A stretch of DNA of 59,399 nucleotides, taken from a virus (lineage: Duplodnaviria; Caudoviricetes). Every line of letters begins with the position of its first letter. Within the stretch, counting starts at the first letter, position 1. The notes under the pieces were generated by a model. That model was not told the DNA's origin, searched no databases, and saw nothing but the letters and a program-made list of their open reading frames with translations. Positions 3,099 through 57,376 of this stretch are shown piece by piece. Both the position numbers and the translations under genes were made by a program. The stretch spans positions 1 to 59,399 of the IMG/VR virus record IMGVR_UViG_3300043399_001226. One strand, written 5' to 3'.

Positions 3099-3110
3099 AT
3101 TAAACTATGA

Positions 3111-3389: not shown

Positions 3390-3419
3390 TATTGTTACCT
3401 TTAAATTATGATTTTGAGA

Positions 3420-6403: not shown

Positions 6404-6600
6404 TATTTACTCATATATGCTCGTAAAGACTTATGCACAAGTTCACTAAGAGTGATATCATTCTCTAGTGCATAACGCTTTATTTCCTTGTGAAAGCTCT
6501 TGTCAACTTTGACTACTAAATTAGCATCTTTATTATCTTCTAGTTGTTTAAGTGCTTTCTCTTTATTTATTGATGGACGACCGGTTTTTAGTGAACTCAT
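6403..6600 (-). CDS. ParG-like ribbon-helix-helix partition protein
   Basis: 65 aa, LVVKVDKSFHKEIKRYALENDITLSELV, coupled directly downstream of parA. Confidence 0.75.
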   Translation of the reverse strand: MSSLKTGRPSINKEKALKQLEDNKDANLVVKVDKSFHKEIKRYALENDITLSELVHKSLRAYMSK

Positions 6601-27855: not shown

Positions 27856-28659
27856 TCATATATTAACTATCGCTAGAGGAGTACAACGACACAAAACGTC
27901 TTGCCCTGGGTGAGATAAAGTAGCTCCTATTAGCTTTCTACTATTCCACGAATCATCTAACTTATCTTTGTAAACACTAATATCAATATAACTACAAATC
28001 TTGCCTTCTAAGACTTCGTGCGAAGTGCGCACTCTTTCGTCTTTAGCAGTACTCCATTTATAATTATCAATACCAAGCATTAAATGCCTGTGCCTTGTTA
28101 AATCAGCGTTTAACTTGTTAATCTGATCCCTAGCTATTAGTTTTGCACGTTTTTTTGATATTGTAAACACTTTGCCAAAATCATTAGCTAAATTCGTAAA
28201 TCCAACACCTCTACGCACTCCGTTGTAGATTATTTCTTGTACTTCGCCGAGTAGATCGGAGTTAATAGATTTGATAAGCCTGACATTATCGGAAATAAAA
28301 AATTGCATTGATTCTTCGATAGATTTAGAAACGGGAATCGATATACCTCTTTTTATAGTACTAGCCAAAGACTGCTTTACAGCTCGATTATTAAAAGTAT
28401 TTACGTGTTTTGTTTTCTTAATTATTTTCTTTATAAAATCCTTAATCTTGATTGATATCTGTAATTCACAGATTTTAATAATATTCTGTAATTCATCATC
28501 CACACTATCAAGTCGTATAGCTAAATTATAAGATTGCTTCAGCTCTCTCAAGGTTATGAGTACCATTTTATACGTTTGACTCACATATTGTTCTAACTGC
28601 TTGCCATATTCATTTTCCAATAAATGTGGATATTGAACTTTTAACGCTATTTGATACAC
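27856..28659 (-). CDS. Minor head morphogenesis protein (Mu gpF/SPP1 gp7 family)
   Basis: RAKLIARDQ, YKWSTAKDERVRTSH, HPGQDVLCRC. Confidence 0.92.
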   Translation of the reverse strand: MYQIALKVQYPHLLENEYGKQLEQYVSQTYKMVLITLRELKQSYNLAIRLDSVDDELQNIIKICELQISIKIKDFIKKIIKKTKHVNTFNNRAVKQSLASTIKRGISIPVSKSIEESMQFFISDNVRLIKSINSDLLGEVQEIIYNGVRRGVGFTNLANDFGKVFTISKKRAKLIARDQINKLNADLTRHRHLMLGIDNYKWSTAKDERVRTSHEVLEGKICSYIDISVYKDKLDDSWNSRKLIGATLSHPGQDVLCRCTPLAIVNI

Positions 28660-28789: not shown

Positions 28790-28826
28790 TATTTCAAGTG
28801 ACCACGGATTGTAATCACTTGAAATA
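28790..28826 (-). terminator. Long hairpin downstream of the 28839..29471 gene
   Basis: TATTTCAAGTGA/TCACTTGAAATA 12-bp stem, extended by G-U pairs on the minus strand. Confidence 0.5.
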
Positions 28827-28838: not shown

Positions 28839-29471
28839 TTAGCTTAATAAATCATTTAATTTACCAGCAGTTAAAACATATCCTCCTATCTCTATACTGT
28901 GTACTGCTTTAACAATATTAGCGTTAACATCACCAGCGACAGTGGCATTACCACGAGATGTTAAACTTCCAGTATTAATACTGTTATTATTAATATTTTG
29001 AATATCAGGAGTCATTCCTTCAAATATAGCAGGATTAATACCGATATTTACCGCTCCATTTGTAACGGTAACATCAACTTGATGTTCTGTACCAGTTACT
29101 TTTGTTAATTTACTAAGGAACTCTTCATCTCCACTAGGATTAGTAATTTTAAAATCAGCGGTTAATAATGGATCAATAGCTTGTCTCAATGAATAAGTAA
29201 CAGTCCAAACATCATTTAACTTACTAATAACAAGATTATTTAATATACCACCACTAGTAATAGTAAAAGTTTGGTCTGTTTCATACCAAGCTACTTGTGT
29301 ACTAGAATCTAAAGGAGGGATTCCATTAGTAATATCAGTTGCAGAAGCATATACAGATGCATGATTATTTGCACCATTAAACACTAAAAAGCCAAGACCT
29401 TCTATAGCACCACTTGCGACAGAAGTTCCAACATCAAAAGTAAGATTATAAATAGCCATATTTTTTACCAA
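28839..29471 (-). CDS. Hypothetical, possibly virion structural (beta-rich)
   Basis: Thr/Asn/Gly-rich ORF within the head region. Confidence 0.6.
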   Translation of the reverse strand: MVKNMAIYNLTFDVGTSVASGAIEGLGFLVFNGANNHASVYASATDITNGIPPLDSSTQVAWYETDQTFTITSGGILNNLVISKLNDVWTVTYSLRQAIDPLLTADFKITNPSGDEEFLSKLTKVTGTEHQVDVTVTNGAVNIGINPAIFEGMTPDIQNINNNSINTGSLTSRGNATVAGDVNANIVKAVHSIEIGGYVLTAGKLNDLLS

Positions 29472-29900
29472 TTAAATTTAAGATTAACCAAGTTATATTT
29501 TAACTTTTTTATCCCTTATCTAAAAGATTTATCCACTTTCTCTATCTTATATTTAAAGATTTTTTTAAGATTTTTCTATCCACAAAGCTCTATAACTAAA
29601 GCTATTCATACATCAGTTTAGGATAAGGAATAAGTAATTTATTCTAGTCAGTAAAACTGTAGTTAGTTTTGTATTGATATTAAAATAGATTGATAACAAC
29701 CTGTATAACTAAATACACCTAACTCTAGCTTTATAGGGTATACAGTGTTTTCCTTATCCTAAACTGGCGTTAAAAAGAGTTAGAGACCTTACTTTTACAA
29801 GGTAGCAGGTGTTACGTTAATGTACTAGCAAACCTTATAAATTTAAAAACTTCAATAAGTAAATTTGTTAATTTTTTATACTCTTAGCTTCTGTTTTTAG

Positions 29901-30182
29901 TTATTTAGTTTCAGTTTGTACGTTAGTACTATTTTCATTTGGTTGTGGTGTTTTATACAAATCTAATTCTTCTTTGACTTTAGTGATATCATACTCTACT
30001 TCTTTTATAAAATTTTCAAGTACCATAACTAATGATTTAGTATCTTCTGAATCAATATCAACTGCCATACCAAATAATCTATAACCGAAATCCCTTATAT
30101 TTTGTGAATCAGTTGTTAGCCAGGTTATATATTTTAAACCATCGCCGTTAATTTCTTTTCTGTTCATAATAATACTTAACAT
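29901..30182 (-). CDS. Hypothetical protein (possible fibre chaperone)
   Basis: ORF just downstream of the large fibre gene. Confidence 0.55.
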   Translation of the reverse strand: MLSIIMNRKEINGDGLKYITWLTTDSQNIRDFGYRLFGMAVDIDSEDTKSLVMVLENFIKEVEYDITKVKEELDLYKTPQPNENSTNVQTETK

Positions 30183-30207
30183 TAATTTACTAACTAATTA
30201 TAACATA

Positions 30208-33200
30208 CTATCCCGCATAAATAAACAAGTTAAAAAATACGCATGGGTTCATCACATCAACAAAAGTGTTTCCTGTTAAACCTGAAACATCCGTAGTAGA
30301 TGAAGAAACTGTGCCTGTATGATTATGTGTAGAGGAATGAACAGTTTCGCTAGCTGTGCCACTATTACCAGTATAATTGGGAATATTAACAGTATGTGTA
30401 TGACTATCATTAGTCGTTGAACCACGTAATCCCACAGTGTACATAATTTTAAAAGGAGAAGCACCGCCGGAGGCGTCGTAATCCGCAAACCCTAATCCAG
30501 AAGTAGATTGAGTATTATACTGATAGACAACAGTATCTAAAATAGATGTACTGTTCGCTCCATTAATATTAAAAGTTATCAAATCATGATTATGAGTATC
30601 CGAAGAAGTTGTCGCAGTTGGATGAAGATGATTAATACTATGAGAATGTCCTGCCGTTGAATGTGTATGAGTATCGTTGGAAATTGAAACGTTATGTTGA
30701 TGATATATACTATGATTATGAGCAGGGACTGTGGTGATTATTTCACTTCCATCCCTATCCCCCGGTTCTCTAGGAGTTAAAGCTCCCAAAACAACCATGC
30801 CTAATTGCCCGGTTTGCTTGCTAGGTACCCCTAATAATCTTGAGCCTAGACGTCCCATTGCAAAAGTAGTAAATCCGTCTCCATTACTAAATATCCCTTT
30901 GTTTATTAATCCACTAGCTACTACTTCGTTCCAAAGTGCAGGGTATTGAAGACGAGATAAGACACGCCCATCTACCCAAAGAAGCCAACCATTATGATCG
31001 GCAGTTTTTATGGATTGTTTAAAATCACCTACAATTGCTCCACCAGTGTTAATAGGAGAACTCCAAGTTCCATTTCCACTTAAATATTTAGTATTATCAT
31101 CTGGATACCCTGCAAGAGAGCTGGCGGGGATATTCTTAACCAAGGAAGCTGCATATTGTTTTGTACTGGTTTCTTTGGAATCAACATATTTTTTATTTGT
31201 TAAATCAGTAGACAAAGTAGGGTCGGCAGAATTAATAACTTTATAACCGTCTAAATTTATATCTCCTTGAGGGTTTTTTACTCTTAAATCAACATAAGAT
31301 TTATTAGTAAGTTCGATTTGAGTAGATGGAACATAATTAGCCAATATTCGTTTTGTGCCTATATCCAAATCGGTAGTTAAAGGTTTAAAATCACTTAAGC
31401 TTTTATTATTAATAAAATTCCGAGTTACGGTTTCTCGTACATCAACATAATTCTTAGTAGCTACGTCTTGAGGTTGATCCGGTTCTACAGAGTTGTAAAT
31501 TCTATATTTATTCTCCAAGTTTATATTACCCATACCTAATATAAACTTATTATCAACATACTGTTTTGTAGCAAAATCAGTTGGAACTTCTGGCGTAGCA
31601 CCATTAATAATTTTAAAATGATTAGCGTCTATCGGTGCACTGGGTAATGATAATTCATTTAATTTTAATTTCTTTACCCCATCTGTAAAATCAGTAATAC
31701 TGCTTACATTCCATTTTTTGGAATCTACGTATATTTTATTTACTCCGTCTTTGTCTAGTAATGGCTCGCCTACAAAAATCAACCTTTGACTATTTAAGTT
31801 GACCTCTTTATCGGGAGGTAATAAATTACTGATTTTTAATTTTGCTAGTATTTCGGTTAAATACGTAAGATTAACTGCGTCCCAAATATCTATAGGATTG
31901 GATAACATTCTAATCCTATTAAGCTCCATACTTATATCTTTATCAGGTGATAAAAAATCACTTAATCTTTTACCACGTAAAGTATTAGTTACATAATCAG
32001 TAACAAATATTTTAGGTGTTGCATCTCTATCTTCTAGAGGGTAACCCAAATTATTGATTCTCTGCATCGCCAAGTTTAATGACTTAACCGGTGGAGAGAT
32101 TTTATCTAAAGTTATAGAACTTATATCAAAAGTTTTGTTATCGACATAATTTTTGATCACTGCATTTTGAGTGTCAACATATTGCTTTGTTGCAGCGTCG
32201 CTATCTAAAAGCGGTTCTAAAACATCAGTGATGCGGTTGCTATCTAAAGATAAAAGGCCTCTAAAATAACCTTTCGTCCCTCTTTCTTCTGTAATATCTA
32301 TTTGGAATGGTACAATACCTTCCACAGGACAGTCACTATCGTAAGTAGAAAAAATTAATTGGTATTTACCTTGATAAGTCGAGTCTTCAAAAAAATTATG
32401 TCCTAAATCAAAATGTTGTGTAAATGATCTATCACCAGTATTGAGTTTAAAGTTAAACTTATTATGAATATCATTAGCAAAGGGTAATAAGATTTCCAAC
32501 CCCATTTCACTTTCGATAAAATTAGAAAAATCCAGAATTGTATTTTTATCTGGCATTCTCAACGGATTTGCAAACTCAACGTAAACAGTATCTTTTAATG
32601 TTGTTTGACCTTTAACAACTCCGTCAACTTTAAGAGGTAATGAAGTAACGTAAACTTTATTTACGGCATCTTTGTCATTTAAAGGAGCGTTCAAATTAGT
32701 AATACGATAATTTCCCCAATCAACGTCCTTAAAAGGTTTAGCAAAAAAACTAATAGGGTAGTTTTTTATCGAATCATAAGAAAGATAGTCTGTTCCATCT
32801 TGAGCACGAATTAAAACTCCTTTTCCATTGGCAGAAGAAACTTTAAGTATACCACTTGCTATAGTACCTAAACTTTGAGCAAGCGGCACTTTATCACTAG
32901 CTTCTTGAACTATAAAAGAAATATCTTCTCTATTTTTTGATATCTTATCATCAATAATAGAATCTAAAACTTGTGCGGCAGGTACTTTATGATTAGCTTC
33001 GGTTACCACAAAAGGGATATCTTCAAGCACCTCTAAAACTACATTGTCTACATGCATTTTAAATATATTTGAGTTAGGAACGTAATAATCTTGATTGGGA
33101 GTTGCAATATCTAACGTTCCTGTAGTTCCAAACACGGTATTTCTTAATAACCCATCACTAAGATATCCCAAAACGTGGGCATTAGGTAAATCATTATAAG

Positions 33201-34686
33201 GACTACCTAGTACAAAATCTGCATCTCTTGGTGCGTCTTTTCCATCATCACCCTTGTCTCCTTTGTCGCCCTTATCTCCATCATCACCTTTGTCTCCTTT
33301 GTCGCCCTTATCTCCATCACTCCCTTTAGAGCCAGAAGGTCCAGTAGGTCCAGGAAGGCCTGGTGGACCAGGAGGACCAGGGATAAAACTTGGTATTCCA
33401 GGAAGACCCATTGGACCTTGTGGTCCTTCAGGTCCTTCTTTTCCTCTTTCTCCTGGGTCGCCTTTTTCTCCTTTCTCTCCTTGTTTACCCGGATCACCTT
33501 TTTCTCCCGGTAAATTTAAGCTCCAATATAATTGTCCTAATCCGTCGGTAGTTAAAACTTGTGTAGGTAGACCGTCTGAAATGGGTACTTTCCAATCTGC
33601 TCCCAATCCTGACAGATGATGTGTAAATGAATATTTAACGCCTAAAGGATCAATCAAGCTGATTTTTGAACAGGTAAACTCACCTTGTTCATCCGCTGTT
33701 ACAACACTTTCTATAACTTTATTTTCCGAGTCCCCTACAAATAGTTTTTTATGGGTTAAAGTAGCTTTACTTAATGTCCCTTCAGCATCATTTTTCAATA
33801 AACCCTCACCTATATCTTTTAAAGATTGAGCATTGGTAAAAGTAGCGGAAGTTTCTAATCCATAAAGTTTAGCTAGTGCTTCAGGTACAGCACTCATTGC
33901 CGGATTTTCCCAAGAAAATGTAATATTTTTATCCTTTACTATAAATCCTGCGGTATCTAATCTTTTAAAGATTTGAGCTATTTTAACTTGGGCCAAGGCT
34001 AGTGCAGAAGAAGCTATCGTTTCAGAAGAAGTATTAGTGGCATTTACGCTTGCAGCAAAAACTTGAGGTAACCAAGGACCACTCATAGTCCAATCAAACC
34101 AAGACGTAGGATTAAAACTTGGATTGGGAATAGGAATATTTTTAGCTAAATCAGGTAAAAAATCAGGAATAGGAAAAGTAGCTGCCCATAAAGTCGGAAG
34201 ATTAATTGTTTTTATTTGTAATTTTTCAAGTGGAAAATTATCTGGACCACCTACCCACAACCTATCACGGCTAAGTTTATTCAAATTGATAACTCTGCCT
34301 AATTCCCTTTTTAAATCTATTATGTCTTGACGTACATCAATTAAAATAGGTGAAGGGCTTGCAATTTTGTTTTTATTGCCCAGAAGAATATAATTCTGAT
34401 TACAAACAATATTAAAAATTAATTCATTATCCTTAAATTCCCAAAGTTTAATCCAGTCAGTATTTTTTAATTCGTTGAATAAAGCATACATTGAGGAATC
34501 TTCAAAAACGAAAGCCATCATTCCAAGACTCCTACGCAAAAGAGAGATATTATTGCGAAGGACTATAGAATCAACGCTGTGTACTCCTCCCTTGCCAAAA
34601 TTCTCCAAATGTGTCGGGTAAGTATCCAACAAAGAATAAGGCCTGATGTAATCACTAATTTTAACACCACCTAAGATGCTTGACAT
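30208..34686 (-). CDS. Large fibre protein: collagen-like G-X-Y segment, ~9 neck-like repeats, tail-collar domain, HxH-rich tip
   Basis: [13 protein letters not shown]...[10 protein letters not shown]; repeats such as [15 protein letters not shown]; GDFKQS....[20 protein letters not shown]; several HxH motifs. Confidence 0.8.
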
Positions 34687-34690
34687 ACTT

Positions 34691-35734
34691 TTAAGCTGTT
34701 AAATGAGTTAATATACTTCCGATTTTACCGCTCTCTGTAACATAATGTTCATCAACTAAGCTAGCTAATTCAGAAAACCACTCTGCAGTACTGTTATCAA
34801 GCTCGTTAGAAAACGTATTAGGAAATCTAGGTTGGAATTTGTAATAATATACATCTTTAGATAATCTGTTTGAGAGATAATCAAGATAATATCTTATATA
34901 TTCTTCGCCTCCAACCATAGCTACTTGCATCAACCCAAATAATCTAACTGCTGCATAGTCAATTCCAGCCTCGGAACCGCTACCATCAAAACTCATATTT
35001 CCAATCCCGCAACCAACATCAACTATAACAATTCTAGTAGCATGAGTTTTTAGTGTCATACCTATGTTTATAGCCATTAATATTGCATCATTTGCATATA
35101 TTCCTCCATCACTATACTTATGCCCATTAAAATCATGTGTTGGAAGATAAATAGGAGCAGCACTTGAAGCTCTACAAACATTTACGATGGTTTCGGTATT
35201 GCCAACAAAATAAGTAGGGTCATTAAAATTAGAAAACATCACGTATTTTTTTCTATCCTCTTCGTAAGCAGGAATAACAACAGGAACTTTTAAATCAGAA
35301 AGAGTTTTAGTACCAAAATTGTCAACTAAAGTACTATGTAAAATGTTGTGCCCATAATCAGAATCATCATAAGCAGATTTATAGAAAGGATCATTAGTAG
35401 CTATCATAGCTAATTTTTGTGCTACATTTGGTCTATTTGAATCTTCGCTCGCATTATGACTTGAAGCCGCTTTTTCCGTTGCTGTCCTAATAGTAAAGAC
35501 TCTTTTAGCTTTTTCTAAAAAAAAGTTTTCCATATAATCGGGAGTTTTGCCTATTGCATAACCGCAAGCAAGTATAGAACCTATACTTGTCCCACACATA
35601 ACATCTACATATTTCCATAAATCAGCTTGCAGTATTCCCCATTGATGCAGGAACTTCTGCATAAAACGATTAGAAGCATAACCTTTTGCTCCACCTCCAG
35701 GAAAACTGAATATTCTAAGTGTATCCTTATCCAT
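34691..35734 (-). CDS. Patatin-like phospholipase
   Basis: GGGAKG, GTSIG (GxSxG), [11 protein letters not shown]. Confidence 0.93.
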
Positions 35735-37814
35735 TTTTAATACCCATCACAAATTCTTCGTGTATTTCATTTAGAGTGCGATAACAATTATACTTAATAC
35801 TTAAACCATACTCATTTGTAATCGTTATCTTCTGTACCTCATCAAAAACCAGAGCTATATCACTTGAAATTTCATAAAACACATAGTTCTCACCTAGGAT
35901 TTCTGGGTAACAGAACCATTTATAACCTACCCCTTGAAAGTAATACTCACCATAAATGTTATCAATAAGCTCTTTAGCTCTGAGTATACTAAGGGGATTC
36001 GTACTACTATCTGAAACCCAGTCCATTATATCGTCGGTATATTCGCCGTAATATATTTTATACTTAAAACCAAGAGTAATCAGGTTCTGGAAACTAGTAC
36101 CGGTAGTATCATATGCTAAAAGAGTAAAATCAATATTTTGCAGGACGTTATAAGTAACATCTAAGGTCTGAAATTCAAAAGGCGAACCTAAAACTTTTTC
36201 TACAACAATTTCATTATCTTGTAGTAAGGTTATTGAATCTGCCTCTAGCAATAGGTCATTTTCTATTGAATAGACGGCAGATAGCACTTCGGATTTTAAA
36301 TTATAACCGATTTCTACGGTTTTAATAAACTCTCCTCCCCCTTGCTTTTGTATAGAAAAAGTAGAAAAGTAAGGTAATCCAACTCCGTATAATAATTTTG
36401 TCATCAATGTTTTAAAATCGGTATTCTTAAACCTTGTGCCTTTAGGTAATCCACCGAGTTTAAAAGGCATTGGTTTAGAATTAGTATAAGATACACTCTC
36501 TCTACTGCCTCCTCCACCGCCACCATAAAAATTCTTAATACCTACCCGTCCTGCATTAATAATGCGTTCATCCGTAGTAATAATAAGATCGCCAAGCTGG
36601 TCAATTTCTGCCGACTTTATGCCGTTTCCTCTATCCCCCTTATCTCCCTTGATACTATCGCCCTTATCCCCTTTGTCGCCTTTTTTACCCTTTGTTTTCT
36701 CAGCTACGGCAATAAGCTCTGTTACGGCAGAATTAACTTGTTCCTGCAAAGCTTCTGCGGCTTTATCAACTAACGTAGTTACTTTTTGATTAACACTTGC
36801 AACAATGAGGTCAATATTGGCATCCCTGCCATCTTGTCCATCCGCTCCATCTTTCCCGTCCTTTGCTTTTGGTAACTTAGCAAATCCTTGCTTGATAAGA
36901 TTTTGAGTGTACCCTTGCAACTCTTCTTTATAACTAGTAGATAAATCATTGATTAAGCTTTTGATTTTAGCAGTTTCTTCTTGTAGATCAGAAGATAGGG
37001 ATGCGTTTAATTCCTTGCTGGATGCAGCAATTAAGTCTTGAATAGAGACTTGAAGTTTATCGTAGTCCTCGCGAGCGTGCTGTTTTAATTTTTCTTCTAA
37101 AATAGCGGTGATTTGTTGGTGGTCAGCATTCCTGCCGTCTTTCCCATCTTTAACATCTGGAATATTAGCAAGTATATATTCTTGTAATTCCTCCTTTATA
37201 GCATCAAGCGGTATAGCTTCAGCATCTTTGCCGTCTTGTCCGTCTATTCCGTCTCTGACACTGGGAATATTAGCAAGTATATACTGTTGTAACTCTCGAG
37301 TTAAAGCTTCTACGTCAATATCCTTGGCGTCTTGCCCGTCTCTTCCATCTTTTCCGTCCTTTGGAACGGGAATCTTCAATCTGCTAAATTCTTTCTGTAC
37401 CTGTTCTTGCAGGATTTTAAGTAACTTCTCTTCTAGCTCCCTTACAACTTCTTCTTCTCTAATCGCAGTAGCAGTTGGAACATTTCCTATATCCTGTAAT
37501 CTTTCTTCAAGCTTTTTAGTCAAACTCTGCTTAATATTCTCCAGCTCTGTCTTTACTTTCTTACTTGAATTCCGTTGCTTGACTTTTTTATCCAGAATAT
37601 CGATGCGTTTAATTAGCTCTTCATTTACATTGTCATTAAGAATAGCGGGAATGTCTAACGAAAATCTTTGCTTAAAACCATTTCTAAACTCTACTTCTAA
37701 AGCGGAATCCTTATAAACTATATTGGTAATAAATTGTTGCTTATCAAATTTTTGTACTTTCTTAGCTATCTTCCCAAGAGTAGCAACAACAAGAGCGTCA
37801 GACATTTTACTCAT
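35727..37814 (-). CDS. Coiled-coil/collagen-like repeat protein, probably virion-associated
   Basis: Repeated (K/R)DGKDG.DG.DA units and GDKGDKG; coupled to the portal gene. Confidence 0.7.
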   Translation of the reverse strand: MSKMSDALVVATLGKIAKKVQKFDKQQFITNIVYKDSALEVEFRNGFKQRFSLDIPAILNDNVNEELIKRIDILDKKVKQRNSSKKVKTELENIKQSLTKKLEERLQDIGNVPTATAIREEEVVRELEEKLLKILQEQVQKEFSRLKIPVPKDGKDGRDGQDAKDIDVEALTRELQQYILANIPSVRDGIDGQDGKDAEAIPLDAIKEELQEYILANIPDVKDGKDGRNADHQQITAILEEKLKQHAREDYDKLQVSIQDLIAASSKELNASLSSDLQEETAKIKSLINDLSTSYKEELQGYTQNLIKQGFAKLPKAKDGKDGADGQDGRDANIDLIVASVNQKVTTLVDKAAEALQEQVNSAVTELIAVAEKTKGKKGDKGDKGDSIKGDKGDRGNGIKSAEIDQLGDLIITTDERIINAGRVGIKNFYGGGGGGSRESVSYTNSKPMPFKLGGLPKGTRFKNTDFKTLMTKLLYGVGLPYFSTFSIQKQGGGEFIKTVEIGYNLKSEVLSAVYSIENDLLLEADSITLLQDNEIVVEKVLGSPFEFQTLDVTYNVLQNIDFTLLAYDTTGTSFQNLITLGFKYKIYYGEYTDDIMDWVSDSSTNPLSILRAKELIDNIYGEYYFQGVGYKWFCYPEILGENYVFYEISSDIALVFDEVQKITITNEYGLSIKYNCYRTLNEIHEEFVMGIKNG

Positions 37815-39226
37815 AAATTATTGTAGAGTTGTTGGAGTTTATCGTTAACTACCGCTTCCTCCTTTTTAGCCAGTCTTTGTTTTTCTCTGGATTCTGCTTG
37901 CATCATAACTTTATCAAGCATATATACATCGTCATCGGTAAAATTTTCTTTCTGAAGAGGCTTTAGCTTAATATTTTCCTTAAATTCGCCGCTACCAAAC
38001 CGCTCTTGCCAGCATTCCGCAGGGTCAATAGCTCCTCTATCTATATATCCCCAGTCTATTTTTGCATGCTTCTCTTTTAACTCCCCGCGTTCTAAATCCG
38101 TCTGCTCTACAAGTGAGTTAAAACTCCAACTGCTGTCCTTATCTCCTTTATATTCTTTCTGTAAAAGTATAAGATTTATTAACTTGTCTATTACATACTC
38201 CATCTCATCAGTGCGATACGCAGAAACTAAATCGTAGTAGTTTCTCATATCACTAACTCCCGTCGAGTTTAACCCTCCTGGAGATTGCCCGAATAGTCTG
38301 GTCATAGGATACCCAGTTGCACCGCAGATAGCCTGTTCAAATTTAGTCCATAAATCACTTAAACCCGTAACAGTACTAGCTTTTTTCTCGTAATCTTCCT
38401 TATTTGCATCGATTACTATCATATTTGACCCTGATCTTGAGAGGTCTAGCCCTTCAATTCTTTGTCTTATATCACTTTCGCCGTTTTGCCTTATCATCTT
38501 TTGATCAAGGTCATTAAGCTTTATAATCACCTGAATAAAATCCTGTACTATCTCTACAGAGGCTACGCTTGTAAGGTCATAATGCTTTAGAACTTCATAA
38601 CAGGATACAAAGACCGAATCGCCCCACCCTTGGTTAGTTACCCTCCTTAAATTATCAACAATCAAGCCGTCTAAAATAATACAACGGCTATAATGTACTT
38701 TTAAAATTGGCTTCTCGTTGCCTACGTTCGGAGGTTGTATGCTATAGTAAGCAGGCTTCGAGTAATTTGGATGATACGGATCGGTAACTAAATCATCTAC
38801 ATTCCAGAAGACCCAGTGTTTATCGTAAACTTTTAAATTAGCAATTTTATTTATCCTCTTCTCATTTAACGGCTCTTCTAAGCTGAGGCCGTCATCAATG
38901 ATAAGTAAAATTAAAGAACCTCCGTATAGCCTAGAAAAATAACCAGCTTCTTTTAAGACATTATTAACTTTTAGCCTTTTAAACTCTTTTTTAAGATCAT
39001 CATTTGCAGAATTAAAAAATCCGCTACGTACCGCATCATCGACAAGGCACTGCACAATCCTACGTGCTAAGCCGTTACCGCTATATAAACTACTTAGTTC
39101 GCTATAGATTAGTTTTTTATATCCTTTAACTTGAGCTTGTCCTGTGCGGCTTAAACTAGAACCTATATTGGTTAATCTATTCTGCCAGTGGTCCTGTCTA
39201 AAAACTTTATCAAGAAATCTTTTCAT
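37811..39226 (-). CDS. Portal protein (DUF1073 family)
   Basis: SRLYGGS, VHYSR, GWGDSV, ATGYPMTRLFGQSPGGLNSTG.SDMRNYYD. Confidence 0.92.
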   Translation of the reverse strand: MKRFLDKVFRQDHWQNRLTNIGSSLSRTGQAQVKGYKKLIYSELSSLYSGNGLARRIVQCLVDDAVRSGFFNSANDDLKKEFKRLKVNNVLKEAGYFSRLYGGSLILLIIDDGLSLEEPLNEKRINKIANLKVYDKHWVFWNVDDLVTDPYHPNYSKPAYYSIQPPNVGNEKPILKVHYSRCIILDGLIVDNLRRVTNQGWGDSVFVSCYEVLKHYDLTSVASVEIVQDFIQVIIKLNDLDQKMIRQNGESDIRQRIEGLDLSRSGSNMIVIDANKEDYEKKASTVTGLSDLWTKFEQAICGATGYPMTRLFGQSPGGLNSTGVSDMRNYYDLVSAYRTDEMEYVIDKLINLILLQKEYKGDKDSSWSFNSLVEQTDLERGELKEKHAKIDWGYIDRGAIDPAECWQERFGSGEFKENIKLKPLQKENFTDDDVYMLDKVMMQAESREKQRLAKKEEAVVNDKLQQLYNNL

Positions 39227-39336: not shown

Positions 39337-41592
39337 CTAATAGAATAATGCATTGTGTTTCCATTTACCATAATTTGCCATTTTATCCTTCATTAAACGC
39401 TCACAGGCATATCTTGTCGCATCAATACAATTATGTGTAACAATCCCATTTTCAATAGTATAATTATGATCGTTCTCCACTTCTAAATTGTAAACATCTT
39501 GATAACCGCATTTCTTAATTTCGATTACTGTAAGCGAAGGTAGCTCTGCAACTAAAACTGCATGTTTGGATCTGAGCGTATTTATTTGATGTAAATTCTG
39601 CTCTACAAATAACACATTCTTTTTGAACGTTATCCACTCCGCTTTTTCTTCTAAATGCTGATTTACAAGCGTTGCTACAAAACTTTCCTTTATTAACTTT
39701 TCCTTTTTGCAAAGAATATATTTTTTTACAATATCTACATTCGTTATCAATTTTTTGTTCAATTGATGGCAAAAGAGATTTAAACCAATGTTCTTTATGC
39801 CACTTACGCCCCTCTTCAGATTGATGCCAAACCACTGTAAGAGGTCTGATGTTATCAAGGTTAGCTTTAAGTTTTTTTCTTGTGGCCTCGCTAATGTATT
39901 TGCCATGATGTTTGCTATGCTCCGTTGGTGAAATACAAACAAGGTTTGTAATATCATTATTAAGTTTATTATGGTCTTTGTGATGAATATGGTAATTTTC
40001 TGGTATTTCACCTTTATAAAACTTATAAACATATCTATGTAAAAACTCGCCTGTGGCACTGTGTTGATAGTAATTAGTTCTAATATTTTTATTAAATCTC
40101 TCTCCTTGAAAATATACTTGTTTAGACATAAAATTAACTTCCTTTTTTGCTCTATATTGTATCGCAAGGCATCAGATAAAACTATTAATTTATCATCTTT
40201 TTCTATATTGAAAAGAGGTTGCCACCCTTTACGTACTGTTAAAAACATATGATCTTTAGTACAGGTAATAGATCTACCATTTGACAATATACATTTAAAA
40301 ACTTGTGCATCTCGCCTTGTTAAACGTACATTAAAATATTTATTCTTTCTGACCGTTCCGTCATCAGCAACACTCCTTACCATTCCCGTTGTCCCAACTA
40401 AGTCACGTATCTTAAATTGACCATTATCAGTATCAACTAAAGTATCGCCTACTAGACAATGATTGTTAGCATCTACAATATTATTAGTAATATCTCCGCT
40501 TCTCTCATCTACTTTGTAAGAATAATTTGAAAATTCCCTTATAGTATTGATACATCTCTCATGTATTATTATTTTATCAAAACTTTTAAGGTATTCTATA
40601 CCATCTTCAATACTACCTTTTCCTTTTTCAACTGGTTTAATACTATAACCTTGTCTATCAATAAATGATATGGTTTCAGGTCTGGAATTATCTGCATATA
40701 TAGTATATCTCATCAAATCAGGTAAACAATTCTCTAAAAACTTACCCGTCTCGTCAATTTCTAAATGTTTTTTATAAGCTTCGTGAGTAATGTACAAACA
40801 GTTATTATCTATATAACATCTAATACCAGCAGTCGGGTCTTGTGAAAAACCAAAGTCCAAGCCAAAATATTTATGTGTATTTTCAGGTTCTTCAAATTTA
40901 TCAATTATCCAGTGTACATCCTGTTTAAATACTTGAGCTTCCGAGTTCTTTAAACATTCCCCCTCCCAAACATGTCTATACATTCCATAATCCTTAATTT
41001 TTAAAGCTTCCATCTGCTCCTTTAAAACATCAGGAAAGTAAGGGTTGTCCATATAATTGACTTTTACAACATAGGAATTTTTAGGAGATTCATCGCTTAA
41101 AAAAGTTCTATATAATATATCGCTTTCATGTTTAGGGTTGAATGTACACCATATTTCGCTATTTGGTTCGCGAATCGTCGGCACTATCACTTGCCAACTT
41201 TCAAAGCTTAAAGTATCGGCTTCTTCAATCCATAATATACTAACACCTGCCATTGATTTAACGCTATCAATGTTGTGCCTTAATCCTTTAAATATAAATC
41301 TGCTACCCGAATAAGAACTAGTAATTTCATCTTTTGTAATTTCAAAATACTCACTCAGTTCCATAGCTTCTATTCTTTGTTTTAGTAATGAGTGCACACT
41401 TTCTTTAATAGAGTTCTGAAACTCTCTACCACAAAGAATTAAATGTTTGTGGTATAAAGATATGCCAATCAAGCTATCAGCAACTGCATAAGACTTACCG
41501 CTACCACGACCGCCATAAATTATTTTATAACGATAAGGCTTGAATAATTCCTTTTGCCATCTTTGAATGTTAACTACTTTTTTCTTTGTCAT
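39337..41592 (-). CDS. terL: Terminase large subunit (PBSX-type) with a 343-aa intein
   Basis: GGRGSGKS Walker A, WIEEA Walker B, GLDFGFSQDP nuclease motif; predicted spliced product 408 aa with junction NNH-CIDATRY. Confidence 0.95.
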   Translation of the reverse strand: MTKKKVVNIQRWQKELFKPYRYKIIYGGRGSGKSYAVADSLIGISLYHKHLILCGREFQNSIKESVHSLLKQRIEAMELSEYFEITKDEITSSYSGSRFIFKGLRHNIDSVKSMAGVSILWIEEADTLSFESWQVIVPTIREPNSEIWCTFNPKHESDILYRTFLSDESPKNSYVVKVNYMDNPYFPDVLKEQMEALKIKDYGMYRHVWEGECLKNSEAQVFKQDVHWIIDKFEEPENTHKYFGLDFGFSQDPTAGIRCYIDNNCLYITHEAYKKHLEIDETGKFLENCLPDLMRYTIYADNSRPETISFIDRQGYSIKPVEKGKGSIEDGIEYLKSFDKIIIHERCINTIREFSNYSYKVDERSGDITNNIVDANNHCLVGDTLVDTDNGQFKIRDLVGTTGMVRSVADDGTVRKNKYFNVRLTRRDAQVFKCILSNGRSITCTKDHMFLTVRKGWQPLFNIEKDDKLIVLSDALRYNIEQKRKLILCLNKYIFKERDLIKILELITINTVPQASFYIDMFISFIKVKYQKITIFITKTIINLIMILQTLFVFHQRSIANIMANTLARPQEKNLKLTLITSDLLQWFGINLKRGVSGIKNIGLNLFCHQLNKKLITNVDIVKKYILCKKEKLIKESFVATLVNQHLEEKAEWITFKKNVLFVEQNLHQINTLRSKHAVLVAELPSLTVIEIKKCGYQDVYNLEVENDHNYTIENGIVTHNCIDATRYACERLMKDKMANYGKWKHNALFY
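39430..40458 (-). mobile_element. Intein in TerL
   Basis: Block A CLVGDTLV, block B ITCTKDHMF, blocks F/G VYNLEVENDHNYTIENGIVTHN followed by Cys+1. Confidence 0.93.
39515..40129 (-). CDS. HNH homing endonuclease with C-terminal zinc fingers, nested in the intein in the -1 frame
   Basis: LHRYVY...IHHKDHNKLNNDITNL..IS..EHSKHH; CRYC..FCSNAC and CVIC..TCSFSC; AAGGAAG RBS 8 nt upstream of the ATG. Confidence 0.9.
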   Translation of the reverse strand: MSKQVYFQGERFNKNIRTNYYQHSATGEFLHRYVYKFYKGEIPENYHIHHKDHNKLNNDITNLVCISPTEHSKHHGKYISEATRKKLKANLDNIRPLTVVWHQSEEGRKWHKEHWFKSLLPSIEQKIDNECRYCKKIYSLQKGKVNKGKFCSNACKSAFRRKSGVDNVQKECVICRAEFTSNKYAQIQTCSFSCRATFAYSNRN

Positions 41593-42303: not shown

Positions 42304-42927
42304 TCACGCCCATGGCAATGTTTCTTCTTCTTCAAAAGTATCATCGGTTTGTTTATCACTGGCCTTCTTATAGTTAATTGGAAACTTTCCGCTCCTCTCA
42401 TCCATATACTCACTATATTTAGCATGATCGGGCGTAATTATAGTCTTGATCTCGTTACGAGGTTGATCGCCTGATGTCTGGATGATAATTTCAGCTACGC
42501 ATATAAGGTTATCAAGGTCAGCAAAGCTTTTAATCTGCCTTTGTTTTTCTGCTTCAGGTGATTTATCTGCTTTGTGTAATCCATGAGCAGAGTTAAGTAT
42601 TGCCTTAATCGTGCTTCTACCGATTTCAGCATATAGTGGTGAATTATCACTATGAAGACCGATCTTGCTCCAGACTTTCCTATTCTCATACTCTCCGCCT
42701 AAAATTACAAACTCACAGGCAAGATATACAGAGGTTCCTGCTTTGCTTTTAGTAGCATACCCGTCTGGCCACTCTTTTGTAGTATGGTTACCTTTTTTAA
42801 GTAATAATCTCACCTTTGCTATGGTTTTATGCGGTATTAGCTCGTAAGACATCTGGTCTTCGGCATCGTTAAAATTGTTCCATTTACTCATTGTTTTGTT
42901 CCTCCTTATTTTTTCTTGCTTCTTCAA
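42304..42927 (-). CDS. Phage single-stranded DNA-binding-like protein (DUF669-like; likely start MSKWNNF)
   Basis: YLACEFVILGGEYENRKVW, acidic/aromatic tail EEETLPWA. Confidence 0.65.
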   Translation of the reverse strand: MKKQEKIRRNKTMSKWNNFNDAEDQMSYELIPHKTIAKVRLLLKKGNHTTKEWPDGYATKSKAGTSVYLACEFVILGGEYENRKVWSKIGLHSDNSPLYAEIGRSTIKAILNSAHGLHKADKSPEAEKQRQIKSFADLDNLICVAEIIIQTSGDQPRNEIKTIITPDHAKYSEYMDERSGKFPINYKKASDKQTDDTFEEEETLPWA

Positions 42928-44350
42928 GTATTTCGCTTAAACCCAGAGGCTCGCAGATTTGTCTAAATTCCTGATCTTTTAGTATCTTCTCAGGACTTAT
43001 AACTATCGGGTCTTTGTGGAAATTCTTATATTCATGATTAGGGTTGGTGCTATGTAGTTCCAAGGTCAAACCTGTTTGAAACACCACTCTTTCTAGTTCG
43101 TCAAAATGTCCTGGAGCCGTTAATCTCTCAATCAGAAAAGGTACAGTTTCTATAATCACCTTGCCTGGTGTTTCAATAATTTTTAGCACTGGGTTGGTTA
43201 GCATGTTGATCAGGTTAGTAATTCTTATCGTGGCTTTTAAATCAAGCCAAGTTGCCTTTTTGTTTTTGCTTATAGGGTAGATTGGAGCTTTTACGTTCTC
43301 GTTAGTAGGAGGCTCCTGTTGCTTGCCTTTAGAGCCAATCTTTATTCCAATAATTTTAACGTTCTGGCCATAAACCGACTTGATAATTTCAGGGATTTTA
43401 TCCTTCTCCATATCGCTTAAACGTATTGATCCCATGTAAATGCCAACCTTATCAGGTTCAAGTTCTCGGAATACCCAGCTATCCTGTATCTCACCTGATC
43501 GCTGTGTTCCTAAAGCCTTCCATAAAGCTTGAGAGAGTAGCATTTTTCTTGTCTGCTCATCAGTATCTTGCATGATATCGTCTTGTTTCATTTCTGGAAT
43601 TTCCTTTGATGGTTGAAGCCCGTCACAATTTGTGACAGACTCAGTTGGTTTATTTTGATTTTCTGACTTAAGAGCAACTTGCTCCAGCTCCGCACGAGAG
43701 CAAGGAGCAAAAGTTGCGTGCTTATCATTTTTTTTCTTTTTTAGTATTTTTTCTTTTTTAGAAGATAATAAACTCTTAGCGTAGCTAGAGTTTTTATCTT
43801 CTTCTATTGAGTTTCTATGTTCCTGCAAACCTTGAGAAGAAGCGGGGTTAGCGATATGTATGGCGGACAAATTTGTCGGGGATACCAGACATTTTTGACT
43901 TGTATGCAAGTCATTTTTGTCAGGGGTTTCAACTAATTTTATTGCACTTTTTCTATAAAATTCTTTTGGATTTTTTAAAATTTCTAATGAATCTTTAGTA
44001 CGTTTTGCAGAGTAAACAAAATGATATTCTTTTTCTTTATAATTATATGAAGTGTGCGATGTTATCTCGTATAAATCAGCTAATTGAGCTAAAAACCTAC
44101 TACGCTGTCTTGTTCCTTGCTTACATTTTGATTGAAGGAATTTACTATTAAAAATAACTTCATCAGGATTCTTTGAAAAAAGAAATTCTATAGCTGCGAT
44201 AAATGTAATAGCTTCATACGCTATTGTCTTTGATGGATCACAAGCTCTTTTTATATCAAGCCATTTATCATAACACGTATTATAAATATCCTTTTCACTA
44301 AGATTCTTCTTCTGGAAATCTACATAGGATACGTTAGCCGCCTTACTCAT
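42884..44350 (-). CDS. Putative replication initiator (N-terminal wHTH, internal iteron-like repeats)
   Basis: N-terminal HTH-like region, low-complexity linker with phased DNA repeats, upstream of the SSB-like gene. Confidence 0.55.
   Translation of the reverse strand: MSKAANVSYVDFQKKNLSEKDIYNTCYDKWLDIKRACDPSKTIAYEAITFIAAIEFLFSKNPDEVIFNSKFLQSKCKQGTRQRSRFLAQLADLYEITSHTSYNYKEKEYHFVYSAKRTKDSLEILKNPKEFYRKSAIKLVETPDKNDLHTSQKCLVSPTNLSAIHIANPASSQGLQEHRNSIEEDKNSSYAKSLLSSKKEKILKKKKNDKHATFAPCSRAELEQVALKSENQNKPTESVTNCDGLQPSKEIPEMKQDDIMQDTDEQTRKMLLSQALWKALGTQRSGEIQDSWVFRELEPDKVGIYMGSIRLSDMEKDKIPEIIKSVYGQNVKIIGIKIGSKGKQQEPPTNENVKAPIYPISKNKKATWLDLKATIRITNLINMLTNPVLKIIETPGKVIIETVPFLIERLTAPGHFDELERVVFQTGLTLELHSTNPNHEYKNFHKDPIVISPEKILKDQEFRQICEPLGLSEILEEARKNKEEQNNE
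43866..43921. repeat. Three 12-bp iteron-like repeats at 22-bp spacing
   Basis: GACAAATTTGTC (43866), GACATTTTTGAC (43888), GTCATTTTTGTC (43910). Confidence 0.6.
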
Positions 44351-49567: not shown

Positions 49568-49858
49568 ATGTACGCAATATCATTCGACATGGAAGTAGCT
49601 AAGTTAAAGGAACACTACGGCGAACCCTACAACAAAGCTTACGATGAAATTAGGGCTATGATGGAAGATTTAGGTTTTATTGGAACACAGGGTAGTCTTT
49701 ATCTTTCAAAAAATGAGAAAAACGATCTTACAACTGTTTATAAAGTAATTAATAAGCTATCTAACGTTCAGTGGTTCTCTGATTCAGTACGAGATATTAG
49801 AGCCTTTAAAGTAGAAGACTGGTCGGATTTTACTGAAATAGTTAGAAATAATAGATAA
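49568..49858 (+). CDS. vapD: VapD (Cas2-like ferredoxin-fold RNase)
   Basis: [42 protein letters not shown]. Confidence 0.92.
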
Positions 49859-56661: not shown

Positions 56662-56922
56662 ATGTTATCGGATATACTTAACTACATAAAATCTATAATT
56701 CTAAGCAAATCATTTCTGATTTTCTTGATGGGTTTTCTTTTGGCCATTGCGGCATTTTCCCATTATATATTTGGCAATGACAATTTACTTGAACAACTGG
56801 GAGAATACTTTGTTTTTGAACAAACTGGCAAGAAAGTAGATTTTAGCCCTGAAGATGGTAATCAGTCTGTTGTTGATACTATAGAAACTACAGTTGAGGC
56901 GGTAAAAAATGCAAATAAATAA
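56662..56922 (+). CDS. Membrane protein, holin candidate
   Basis: One TM segment; overlaps the lysozyme start. Confidence 0.5.
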   Translation: MLSDILNYIKSIILSKSFLIFLMGFLLAIAAFSHYIFGNDNLLEQLGEYFVFEQTGKKVDFSPEDGNQSVVDTIETTVEAVKNANK

Positions 56923-57376
56923 AAAAGGCTTAGACTTACTTAAAACATGGGAACAAGGACCAAAAGGAGGATTTGCGTCTAGTATTTACTCGTGCAGTGC
57001 TGGTAAGCGTACTATAGGCTATGGTCATGTTATTACAGCTGATGAGAATATTAATGAGCCGATATCCGAGGCTAAGGCAGAAGAGTTACTTAAAAAAGAT
57101 ATTATTTGGTCTGAAGATGCGGTTAATAAGTACGTAAAAGTTGCTTTAACGCCAAATCAATTTAGTGCTTTAGTTTGTTTTGTATTTAATATTGGAGTAG
57201 ATAATTTTGAAAAGTCCACTTTATTGTCTTGCATAAATAAGGGGTTGTTTGATAAAGTACCAGACCAGTTTTTACGTTGGAATAAGATTACTGTTAATGG
57301 TGTTAAGGTGGTTTCAAATGGACTTACCAACAGAAGAAAAGCTGAAGTAGCCTTGTGGAATGATACAGAGAATTAA
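56909..57376 (+). CDS. GH24 phage lysozyme (endolysin)
   Basis: GLDLLKTWE, YSCSAGKRTIGYGH, NQFSALVCFVFNIG, GLTNRRKAE. Confidence 0.93.
   Translation: MQINKKGLDLLKTWEQGPKGGFASSIYSCSAGKRTIGYGHVITADENINEPISEAKAEELLKKDIIWSEDAVNKYVKVALTPNQFSALVCFVFNIGVDNFEKSTLLSCINKGLFDKVPDQFLRWNKITVNGVKVVSNGLTNRRKAEVALWNDTEN

Follow-up and report, generated by a model that had tools for sequence, protein, structure and literature searches.

Comparison of phage loci across IMG/VR establishes that a patatin-like phospholipase and the long fibre encoded directly downstream of it are strictly coupled, that the two occur together in two unrelated backbones (one myovirus, one podovirus), and that they have switched repeatedly between these; all three observations are new here. 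Such repeated transfer of the two genes among phages of unrelated type suggests that patatin and fibre work together on membranes. We tentatively favour a portable late cassette whose core is a CapV-like patatin in translational coupling with a long, trimeric fibre, the small protein p93 trailing behind, and in which the lipase would be brought to a membrane by an accessory virion fibre.

The window (the whole stretch of DNA analysed, 59.4 kb) is a complete E217/Pam3-like myophage. It very probably infects an intracellular bacterium of the Rickettsiales, of Megaira/Megaera type, in keeping with the initial annotation, which took it for a phage of an intracellular bacterium. That annotation had also described the portal and gpF (MuF) genes as split by about 9 kb; the measured distance from portal stop to MuF start is ~9.15 kb, with the ORF coordinates unchanged, and the interval is filled, from portal to MuF, by p695, by a patatin gene that is intact, by the 1492-aa fibre with its collagen and HxH parts, and by two smaller proteins of 93 and 210 aa:

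37811..39226, minus strand: portal, 471 aa (PF06381 E 1.4e-80; phrog_146 E 3.1e-103), upstream module boundary
35727..37814, minus strand: p695, fibre-like protein, 695 aa (alignment of relatives, AF2 fold, motif counts)
34691..35734, minus strand: patatin-like phospholipase, 347 aa (PF01734 over aa 10–221 at 82.3 bits, cutoff 27.7)
30208..34686, minus strand: fibre, 1492 aa (collagen PF01391 E 1.5e-15, 57.2 bits, cutoff 27.2)
29901..30182, minus strand: p93, small acidic protein, 93 aa, encoded after the final fibre ORF whichever the backbone
28839..29471, minus strand: p210, 210 aa, likely start ATG at 29459
28790..28826, minus strand: terminator-like hairpin, 16-bp stem with T-rich tail, directly after p210 and before MuF
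27856..28659, minus strand: MuF-like minor head protein (gpF), 267 aa (PF04233 E 5.3e-16; phrog_324 E 2.9e-47), downstream module boundary

In at least one relative, phiEt88, portal adjoining MuF is the ordinary order, the head morphogenesis gene following the portal after a 4-nt gap. In addition, the MuF or the protease of the window phage is hit by several PHROG profiles that bear a portal or minor-head label, which is consistent with fused or adjacent portal/minor-head forms. The p695 ATG and the portal stop share 4 nt, patatin and p695 overlap by 8 nt, and a spacer of 4 nt separates patatin from the fibre start, so that the overlap of an intact patatin with the upstream gene and the start of a 1492-aa fibre 4 nt past the patatin stop, both proposed at the outset, are borne out. 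The module is real, intact and embedded in the late operon.

A synteny search, one of the checks the initial annotation had named, placed patatin directly upstream of the fibre domain throughout, in both backbones. Seeding with the fibre domain alone yielded 64 IMG/VR loci, all 64 with patatin directly 5′ of it; seeding with patatin yielded 42 loci, of which three stop inside the patatin gene, and the fibre domain follows in 39/39 of those with downstream sequence. Across loci, gene starts overlap or lie within ~10 nt, and the linkage persists where patatin identity has fallen to 28–41% (L061, L094, L102 and L091). In the myovirus backbone the order is portal–p695–patatin–fibre–p93–MuF; in the podovirus backbone (MAnkyphage type, Megaira) it is TerL–patatin–fibre–p93–...–portal. 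When patatins are compared across backbones (51 distinct pairs), the median identity is 0.77 and the highest value 0.96, and the patatin tree requires at least ten backbone switches, at least five of them forced by well-supported branches. In L016/L017 the major capsid protein (MCP) is 36% identical, the portal 44% and patatin 74%; for L013 the values are 95% (MCP), 96% (portal) and 75% (patatin); judged by these identities, patatin conservation is decoupled from the backbone. The adjacency, kept in every seeded locus, in two backbones and down to 28% patatin identity, supports a functional coupling of patatin and fibre, although part of that coupling is linkage, adjacent genes being co-inherited. 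It might also be argued that the two have no functional link and that one ancestral insertion was simply copied around. The loci do come from one phage group with probably related hosts, so that the switch and adjacency events are not fully independent. The adjacency has nevertheless outlasted the deep divergence of patatin, the recombination that parted patatin from its flanks (L013, L061) and the repeated switches of backbone, and we consider this explanation very improbable.

Among 50,697 phage records the patatin of MAnkyphage_25.80 (OP381185), a Megaira polyxenophila phage, is the only match at E≤1e-5, being 71.5% identical over its full length. As in the window, genes annotated ‘patatin’ and ‘tail Fiber’ are adjacent there, the 1520-aa fibre lies directly downstream of patatin and has the proximal domain in common with the window fibre, and p93 homologues are also found. 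In contrast to the window myophage, MAnkyphage is a T7-like podovirus that carries the pair between TerL and portal, has no p695, and has a fibre without the 75-aa N-terminal extension described below. Homologues of p93, 28–37% identical, follow the fibres in myovirus-type and podovirus-type loci alike; the protein has no family match in Pfam, PHROG, PADLOC or NCBIfam and no TM segment, and it is possibly a fibre assembly factor.

The fibre can be divided into three parts:

34462..34686, minus strand: N-terminal extension, aa 1 to ~75, motif YPTHL..GKGG.HSV (from alignments)
33751..34401, minus strand: conserved proximal domain, aa ~96–312, with a 16-residue helix (invariant alignment columns)
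30208..33750, minus strand: variable distal part with collagen, repeats, a collar-like segment and the HxH tip

Both backbones have the proximal domain in common, and among relatives the distal part is swapped or divided into several ORFs; on sequence, the protein conforms to the phage-fibre pattern of a conserved virion-proximal N-terminus and a variable distal C-terminus. G-X-Y runs occupy aa 394–432 and 437–484. About nine DAATKxYVD-type repeats had been proposed; repeats are indeed present, and the strict motif D-x-x-[TNP]-[KL]-x-[YF]-[VL]-[DT] occurs eight times (aa 673–1169). Similarly, the proposed HxH tip holds up, with eight HxH motifs at aa 1323–1456, while the collar-like segment scores below threshold (PF07484 on aa ~1232–1253, E 0.24; 11.8 bits, cutoff 24). 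The fibre matches 24 PHROG families at E≤0.001, 17 of them in the category ‘tail’ and 13 of these tail fiber protein; phrog_2647, ‘head decoration’, matches the repeat motif (E 6.9e-35). For a head or neck placement of the fibres, which is possible, the pointers are gene position and the phrog_2647 match; the podoviruses carry the same cassette between TerL and portal, and the window phage also has a candidate baseplate fibre of its own, p393.

The N-terminal extension and p695 go together, both being found in 19/19 loci (fibre match from query residue ≤7) and both missing in 45/45. p695 is confined to the myovirus backbone, where it follows the portal in 8/8 portal-seeded loci. Its N-terminal domain of ~55 aa is followed by a variable, helical region that bears KDGxDG motifs; G-X-Y triplets over a short length and a poly-Gly linker then lead to the C-terminal double β-sandwich (aa ~440–695). 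The initial annotation saw in it a coiled-coil/collagen protein overlapping the portal stop; the 4-nt overlap stands, but p695 is only weakly collagen-like, with two runs of four G-X-Y triplets (and four [KR]DGxDG motifs), and Pfam scans matched no family. The C-terminus is its most conserved part (nine relatives), and an AF2 model of aa 430–695 (pLDDT 76.6) is similar to the distal portions of phage proteins that are uncharacterised and in some cases carry a tail-fibre label (best BFVD E 2e-10, TM ~0.5), so that the model predicts a phage distal-fibre-like fold.

The patatin has the motifs GGGxKG, GTSIG and DGG: an oxyanion loop (G13-G14-G15-x-K17-G18), a nucleophile elbow (G48-T-S50-I-G52) and a catalytic Asp (D209-G-G). 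GxSxG and DG[GA] patterns are present in 37/37 related patatins checked, and G13, G14, G15, G18, G48, S50, G52 and D209 are invariant in a 31-row alignment; by sequence, the protein is a predicted phospholipase A with intact catalytic motifs. No TM segment was found, and the patatin fold starts right at the N-terminus. The best PDB matches are CapV-type chains, and the PADLOC CBASS phospholipase profile PDLC00758 matches aa 3–338 at E 4.7e-47; among the PDB, PADLOC and NCBIfam entries compared, the CapV (CBASS) phospholipases appear on sequence as its nearest characterised relatives. VpdC, a large secreted effector, was also considered and set aside as the nearest relative, the NCBIfam match reaching E 0.008 only and the CapV-type enzymes being closer. 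Like CapV, as described in the available text of PMC12480259, the window patatin is a single-domain patatin of similar length with the same Ser–Asp dyad and the same basic oxyanion-loop residue. Unlike CapV, it belongs to the structural operon of a phage, and its C-terminal third is unalignable: the profile search aligns aa 3–84 and 122–256 to CapV chains and leaves unaligned the region equivalent to R279, which belongs with F147, K149, D159 and E207 to the cGAMP-binding residues listed for AbCapV (available text of PMC12480259). A ~35-aa insert is specific to the family, and is missing from L061 and L094.

Considering this kinship, the gene might derive from CapV and serve in defence, exclusion or counter-defence (as an orphan effector of CBASS or as a decoy), merely riding in the late operon, and both the full-length match to PADLOC effector profiles and the 22–25% identity of plasmid-borne genes named CapV by PGAP are in line with this. 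The patatin falls, however, below the NCBIfam CBASS_lipase equivalog cutoff (NF041079; 123.3 bits against 200), and PADLOC scans of 23 further window ORFs matched no defence partner and no cyclase model, the matches in all 24 ORFs being the patatin, one Cas2-like, one marginal and nothing else; Pfam scans of the window ORFs gave no cyclase either. We therefore rejected CBASS CapV proper, for which a CD-NTase cyclase was sought in both scans. The cGAMP-binding C-terminal region of CapV does not align, the gene is co-oriented and start/stop-coupled within a structural operon, and the intact dyad speaks against a pure sponge, so that a defence role of any kind appears improbable.

The window also encodes what look, from sequence, like a separate canonical lysis pair:

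56662..56922, plus strand: holin-like ORF, 86 aa, one TM segment (TM scan)
56909..57376, plus strand: T4-type lysozyme gene, overlapped by the holin-like ORF (PF00959 E 6.6e-37)

With this holin-like gene and lysozyme encoded away from the module, the phage does not lack a lysis enzyme. It is quite possible, if somewhat less likely than the preferred cassette, that the patatin is nevertheless a soluble late lysis or egress enzyme acting outside the virion, with the adjacency to the fibre due to shared late expression and co-transfer. It could then attack the inner membrane from the cytoplasm, as CapV does, or, once holin and lysozyme have done their work, take the part of a spanin by attacking the phospholipid on the inner side of the outer membrane, and subsequently the membranes of the protist host. 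In the available text of PMC12480259, CapV is a soluble cytoplasmic enzyme that disrupts the inner membrane from inside, and this kinship would suit a non-structural role of the patatin equally well, as would its start at the patatin fold without a TM segment. No spanin was recognised in the window. Against such a role, the lysis pair is ~21 kb away, on the opposite strand and not beside patatin, and a lipase produced without regulation alongside the head proteins would risk killing the cell too early; further, the 64/64 adjacency, kept despite at least ten backbone switches and replacements only 28% identical, would go unexplained.

Phage WO of Wolbachia, also a phage of a Rickettsiales endosymbiont, bears on the same question; the idea that phages of this kind have to cope with eukaryotic membranes, the ‘twofold cell challenge’, comes from the available text of PMC5062602. 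A full-length alignment of the WOVitA1 and window patatins gives 22% identity (E 9e-9), and the WO enzyme matches the same PADLOC effector profile at E 5.7e-63. The initial annotation's appeal to the WO patatin is thus sound as to homology, but in the available text of PMC9203015 the WO enzyme is proposed to belong to a lytic cassette, not to the virion, which favours the lysis role: it adjoins holin-like, phospholipase D and ankyrin genes beside the tail module, in a phage described there as without canonical endolysin. In the window, by contrast, patatin has the family-specific insert and is locked to the fibre inside the head block, with a lysozyme present, and no small TM protein or ankyrin gene adjoins it. 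A WO-type lytic cassette was rejected here, the neighbours being p695 and the fibre, p93 having no TM segment, and the lysozyme and holin-like ORF lying at 56662–57376.

We suggest, in terms of the preferred portable cassette, that the fibre may form an accessory side fibre of the virion, that its hypervariable distal part may bind a surface, and that patatin may associate with the proximal domain, perhaps via the 16-residue helix, so that the lipase would be delivered to the bilayer the fibre touches. That bilayer could be a protist-host membrane enclosing or separating Megaira-type bacteria, or it could be phospholipid of a bacterial membrane. Within the myovirus lineage, p695 may serve as a lineage-specific partner or adaptor of the 75-aa extension. 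Virion location, patatin–fibre contact and membrane target are what we infer from this arrangement. Against this reading, tips of such a hypervariable, shuffled kind typify receptor-binding proteins for bacterial surfaces, where the outer leaflet is LPS and not phospholipid. A virion-borne lipase has a functional analogue in the PLA2 of the parvovirus VP1 unique region, which breaches a host lipid membrane during entry. The likeness, which amounts to the model of the initial annotation, is one of function only: parvoviruses are eukaryotic viruses whose enzyme has an unrelated, secretory-PLA2-like fold and is part of the capsid protein itself, and for the window patatin a place in the particle is hypothetical. 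MuF-fused polymorphic toxins of temperate phages are likewise cargo encoded at the portal/MuF position, and are thought to travel in the capsid. The window patatin is an enzyme encoded at that position too, but we rejected a toxin of this class, as the window MuF is a separate 267-aa protein with PF04233 only and no toxin domain; in the podoviruses, moreover, patatin is not adjacent to MuF.

One relative, L113, keeps the portal, a p695 homologue and a fibre with the N-terminal extension, and is the only one without patatin, none being found in its 29-kb record (59% complete). Since it has both fibres and no patatin, the fibre system can exist without the lipase, a point in favour of a lysis role. 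L113 also lacks the helix and most of the conserved proximal domain, which speaks for the preferred cassette and would likewise be expected if patatin were a maturation or assembly factor (acyl-transfer, esterase or chaperone-like) acting on that domain and absent from the particle. The strict upstream position, the translational coupling and the conserved catalytic motifs agree with such a factor; p93, however, is a more conventional chaperone candidate, and we are not aware of any patatin that matures a fibre, so that we regard this as unlikely. In L109, L110 and L112 patatin is present and no fibre domain is recognisable at aa 170–300, which indicates that the partner surface of patatin, if any, is not the whole proximal domain.

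Finally, p210 is specific to the window: it was matched in none of the 42 patatin-seeded loci, has no significant family match (Pfam, PHROG, PADLOC, NCBIfam) and is preceded by ~430 nt of non-coding DNA. Terminator-like sites in the region do not exceed the shuffled expectation in number, but the stem of the hairpin following p210 is by far the longest.

The analyses presented here show that a CapV-like patatin is recurrent in phages of Rickettsiales endosymbionts, namely the Wolbachia phage WO, MAnkyphage (a podovirus of Candidatus Megaira polyxenophila) and the myovirus group of the window, and that in Megaira-type phages this patatin is locked to a giant fibre, the two forming a cassette that is passed between virion types of unrelated architecture. 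A phage whose host is an obligate intracellular bacterium confronts eukaryotic membranes besides bacterial ones; to our knowledge, how phage WO copes with them has been debated for a decade with no tractable system. Phage-borne patatins of endosymbiont phages were already known from WO and from the MAnkyphage record, where the annotations read 'patatin' and 'tail Fiber'. In the literature searched, whose scope leaves the MAnkyphage primary paper outside, we found no description of the patatin–fibre unit as a cassette in two phage architectures, of the CapV affinity of its patatin (shared with WO), or of the pairing of p695, a 695-aa fibre-like protein, with an N-terminal extension of the fibre.

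The window is a complete viral record (59,399 bp, direct terminal repeats) in which a co-oriented minus-strand gene run of 34 kb is that of an E217/Pam3/KPP10-like myovirus. The run begins with TerS, TerL (with an intein), portal, the module, MuF (gpF), a DUF2213 protease, cement protein and major capsid protein (MCP), continues through adaptor and neck proteins, tail terminator, sheath, tube, chaperone, tape measure and a Dit-like protein, and ends with plug, hub, spike, the W-, J- and DUF2612 baseplate proteins and the 393-aa p393. The initial annotation had described a module wedged between portal and gpF, genes that are usually neighbours; its coordinates and overlaps were reproduced exactly, and in phiEt88, which has a related portal, MuF indeed lies directly 3' of the portal.

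37811–39226, minus strand: portal, upstream bound of the module
35727–37814, minus strand: p695, overlapping the portal stop by 4 nt
34691–35734, minus strand: patatin, overlapping p695 by 8 nt
30208–34686, minus strand: 1492-aa fibre, after a 4-nt spacer following the patatin
29901–30182, minus strand: p93 (93-aa protein), 3' of the fibre
28839–29471, minus strand: p210 (210-aa protein)
after p210: terminator-like hairpin of 16 bp
27856–28659, minus strand: MuF, downstream bound of the module

The gap between p93 and p210 (29472–29900), about 430 nt of non-coding DNA, is unusual in an operon packed so tightly and matches no Rfam family; Rfam and tRNA scans over the whole window returned nothing. 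In relatives p210 is absent and about 290 nt lead from p93 to MuF.

The synteny search proposed with the initial annotation found patatin and fibre adjacent on two backbones. Seeding an IMG/VR scan with the patatin yielded 42 loci (12 myovirus-like, 26 MAnkyphage-like podovirus, 4 undetermined), and a fibre gene with the conserved N-terminal region directly follows the patatin in 39/39 of those that reach beyond it; a second, independent scan, for which only the fibre domain served as seed, placed a patatin directly upstream in 64/64 loci, including pairs whose patatins are merely 28–41% identical. The myovirus-like order is TerL-portal-p695-patatin-fibre(s)-p93-MuF-protease-cement-MCP, and the podovirus order TerS-TerL-patatin-fibre(s)-p93-two small genes-portal-MCP. 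We tentatively suggest that so strict and recombination-resistant a coupling reflects a joint function, in which a phospholipase associated with an accessory fibre of the virion would act on the bilayer touched by that fibre. Beside that coupling, a patatin and a fibre with no functional link at all would be very improbable; a patatin that serves as a maturation enzyme for the adjacent fibre we judge improbable.

Across 51 distinct patatin and fibre pairs, patatins are as similar between the two backbones (identity median 0.77, maximum 0.96) as they are within one, and the patatin tree requires at least 10 switches between myovirus and podovirus, at least five of them forced by well-supported branches. 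At loci L016 and L017 the MCP is 36%, the portal 44% and the patatin 74% identical, whereas at L013 the values are 95, 96 and just 75%, respectively. Since patatin conservation is decoupled from the backbone, the cassette must be exchanged among co-occurring phages, and the enzyme is under strong constraint. In the myovirus-type locus L061 (IMGVR_UViG_3300002026_000220, 2967–4001), the portal, the p695 C-terminus and the fibre domain are 54, 51 and 46% identical to those of the window, and the patatin in the same position is only 28% identical, lacks the family insert (~35 aa) and groups with the podovirus patatins L094 and L091. Here an in-situ exchange of the lipase gene has apparently taken place. 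As L061 and L094 lack this insert and yet have a fibre downstream, we rejected it as a universal fibre-docking element.

In a portal-seeded scan (8 loci), a p695 homologue follows the portal in 8/8 and a patatin is present in six of the seven that reach far enough. At the exception, L113, the p695 homologue is followed directly by the fibre, which has kept its N-terminal extension without a 16-residue helix and most of the shared domain; no patatin was found anywhere in its 29-kb record (59% complete). The distant relatives L109, L110 and L112 keep patatin and helix and have no recognisable domain at aa 170–300. The main rival to a joint function, in which the enzyme is a soluble late lipase serving lysis or egress, draws on L113, according to which fibres can do without the patatin, on the lack of a TM segment or leader-like N-terminal extension in the patatin, and on the enzymology of its relatives (PMC12480259). 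Such a lipase would act like CapV from the cytoplasm, or in the manner of a spanin on the inner leaflet of the outer membrane, and then on protist membranes; we regard it as doubtful, though a serious candidate. The argument made for phage WO (PMC9203015), that a patatin stands in for a missing endolysin, does not apply here as such, because the window encodes a T4-type lysozyme, whose gene overlaps a holin-like ORF (56662–57376, plus strand).

The patatin passes Pfam with 82.3 bits and has the GGGxKG loop, GTSIG elbow and DGG aspartate; G-x-S-x-G and D-G-[GA] patterns are present in 37/37 patatins checked. Its best matches in PDB, PADLOC and NCBIfam are CapV-type CBASS phospholipases (PADLOC PDLC00758, E 4.7e-47, full length; best solved structures 9wn1/9kh6/8zr9), its C-terminal third has no alignment to CapV, and it carries the family-specific insert. 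Its full-length alignment with the WOVitA1 patatin shows 22% identity (E 9e-9), and the WOVitA1 protein scores still better against that PADLOC profile. Patatins from Megaera plasmids and genes named CapV by PGAP share 22–25% identity with the window patatin. Considering these profile and structure matches together with the WOVitA1 alignment, CapV-type enzymes are probably the nearest characterised relatives of the WO, MAnkyphage and window patatins, in a comparison that leaves aside Rickettsia Pat1/Pat2 and ExoU. Membership of CBASS was rejected, since the patatin scores 123 against the NCBIfam equivalog (cutoff 200) and no defence-system partner, any cyclase model included, was matched in the PADLOC scan of 23 other window ORFs. 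That the patatin is a defence or exclusion gene derived from CapV is less probable still than fibre maturation. A MuF-toxin fusion was likewise rejected, MuF being a separate protein without a toxin domain.

Within the fibre, the collagen region (PF01391, aa 394–484) and the HxH tip (8 HxH motifs) reported initially are present; the DAATKxYVD-type repeats, put at about nine, are borne out with a count of eight DxxTKxYVD-type motifs, the collar domain amounts to a sub-threshold match only, and p695, described as a coiled-coil/collagen protein, is barely collagen-like. Residues 1–75 are confined to the myovirus backbone, residues ~96–312 are common to both backbones, and beyond residue ~330 relatives have either a different sequence in its place or several separate ORFs. 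The N-terminal extension and p695 occur together in 19/19 loci and are both absent from 45/45, a perfect co-occurrence which suggests that p695 is a lineage-specific partner of the fibre. The C-terminus is the best-conserved part of p695; its model (pLDDT 76.6) consists of two beta-sandwiches and resembles distal parts of uncharacterised phage proteins, some named tail fibre or collagen, with generic Ig-like matches only in Foldseek against PDB (best E 2.7e-4, TM 0.25) and unnamed viral clusters in the ESM Atlas. PDB sequence searches gave no match for p695, p393 or the 580-aa p580. For fibre aa 1–335 all ESM Atlas scores were below 0.9, an Mtd_N cluster at 0.85 being a lead and not a finding, and the AF2 monomer of aa 1–400 (24 sequences) was unusable (mean pLDDT 39.5). 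Complex prediction with three copies of fibre aa 96–312 and the patatin (own alignments) scored 0.21 and 0.19 against a mark of 0.32, which is uninformative on binding either way. Gene order is all that speaks for a head or neck placement of the fibres; podoviruses carry the same cassette between TerL and portal, and long-fibre genes distant from baseplate genes are ordinary, e.g. in T4.

The initial interpretation, a virion apparatus for crossing eukaryotic membranes, is partly supported. Its stronger form, which we consider unlikely, is that the patatin–fibre pair is a plug-in virion organelle whose fibre would dock on a host-derived eukaryotic membrane that the fibre-bound, CapV-derived phospholipase would then open, allowing phages of obligate intracellular bacteria to pass between bacteria enclosed or separated by protist membranes. 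If true, the pair would be the first equivalent in phages of the parvovirus capsid PLA2. It would also meet the 'twofold cell challenge' directly, by an exchangeable device common to myo- and podoviruses that shares descent with the phage WO patatin. The cassette offers a concrete testable unit of two genes, a defined domain (fibre aa ~96–312) and a defined helix, with L113 as a natural patatin-less control and a podovirus member that has a cultured host system. It also ties the CapV defence-effector family to a phage late function, which bears on the exchange of parts between phages and defence systems.

The claim that this is a phage of an intracellular bacterium agrees with the gene matches. 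Of 50,697 phage records, MAnkyphage (71.5% patatin identity) alone matches at E<=1e-5; a search of the genome collection with the patatin hit three loci, on a Candidatus Megaera venefica contig and in two metagenome bins, and one database homologue is labelled a Trichorickettsia plasmid protein. Two porin genes, which look like host-like outer-membrane morons, are present, one of them 51% identical to a gene in the Candidatus Megaera venefica genome.

1013–2284, plus strand: porin, 423 aa, PF13609 (Gram-negative)
4300–5571, minus strand: porin, 423 aa, PF13609 (Gram-negative)

Because of these patatin, porin and Trichorickettsia-labelled matches, a Megaira-type Rickettsiales host is very likely on sequence grounds. 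Near-identical DNA is found in runs from at least 10 studies, mostly freshwater. No RNA run was listed among them, and the contigs of four runs of possible RNA type are probably of DNA origin and carry mostly relatives, so that they are uninformative on co-expression.

Finally, several other genes of the window are of note.

39337–41592, minus strand: TerL
6597–7259, minus strand: ParA
7365–7700, minus strand: MazF-like toxin
3111–3389, minus strand: HU
45481–46929, plus strand: sodium:solute symporter
49568–49858, plus strand: stand-alone Cas2-like protein
19663–21405, minus strand: ORF of 580 aa, no family match
21408–22010, minus strand: ORF of 200 aa, no family match
10581–11762, minus strand: p393
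42304–44350, minus strand: p488 and p207, upstream of TerS

TerL owes its 751 aa (411–429 aa in relatives) to an inserted intein (PF14890, aa ~391–721); in two runs, related phages have contigs from which precisely 39426–40456 (1029 nt) is missing, so their alleles are intein-free. The genes for ParA, the MazF-like toxin, HU, the symporter and the Cas2-like protein, with no integrase recognised in the window, suggest a phage-plasmid lifestyle with several cargo genes. The 580-aa protein, encoded with the 200-aa ORF between the sheath and tube genes, has an Ala, Pro and Gly content unusually high for a genome of 33% GC. The baseplate block ends with p393, an internal tandem duplication of ~190 aa that has no family match and is a candidate short tail fibre or baseplate fibre of this phage. 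No function is known for p488 or for p207, which matches phrog_2300; both proteins are common to myovirus and podovirus loci at 27–91% identity (e.g. L037, L029, L017) and may form a second module swapped between the two phage types.
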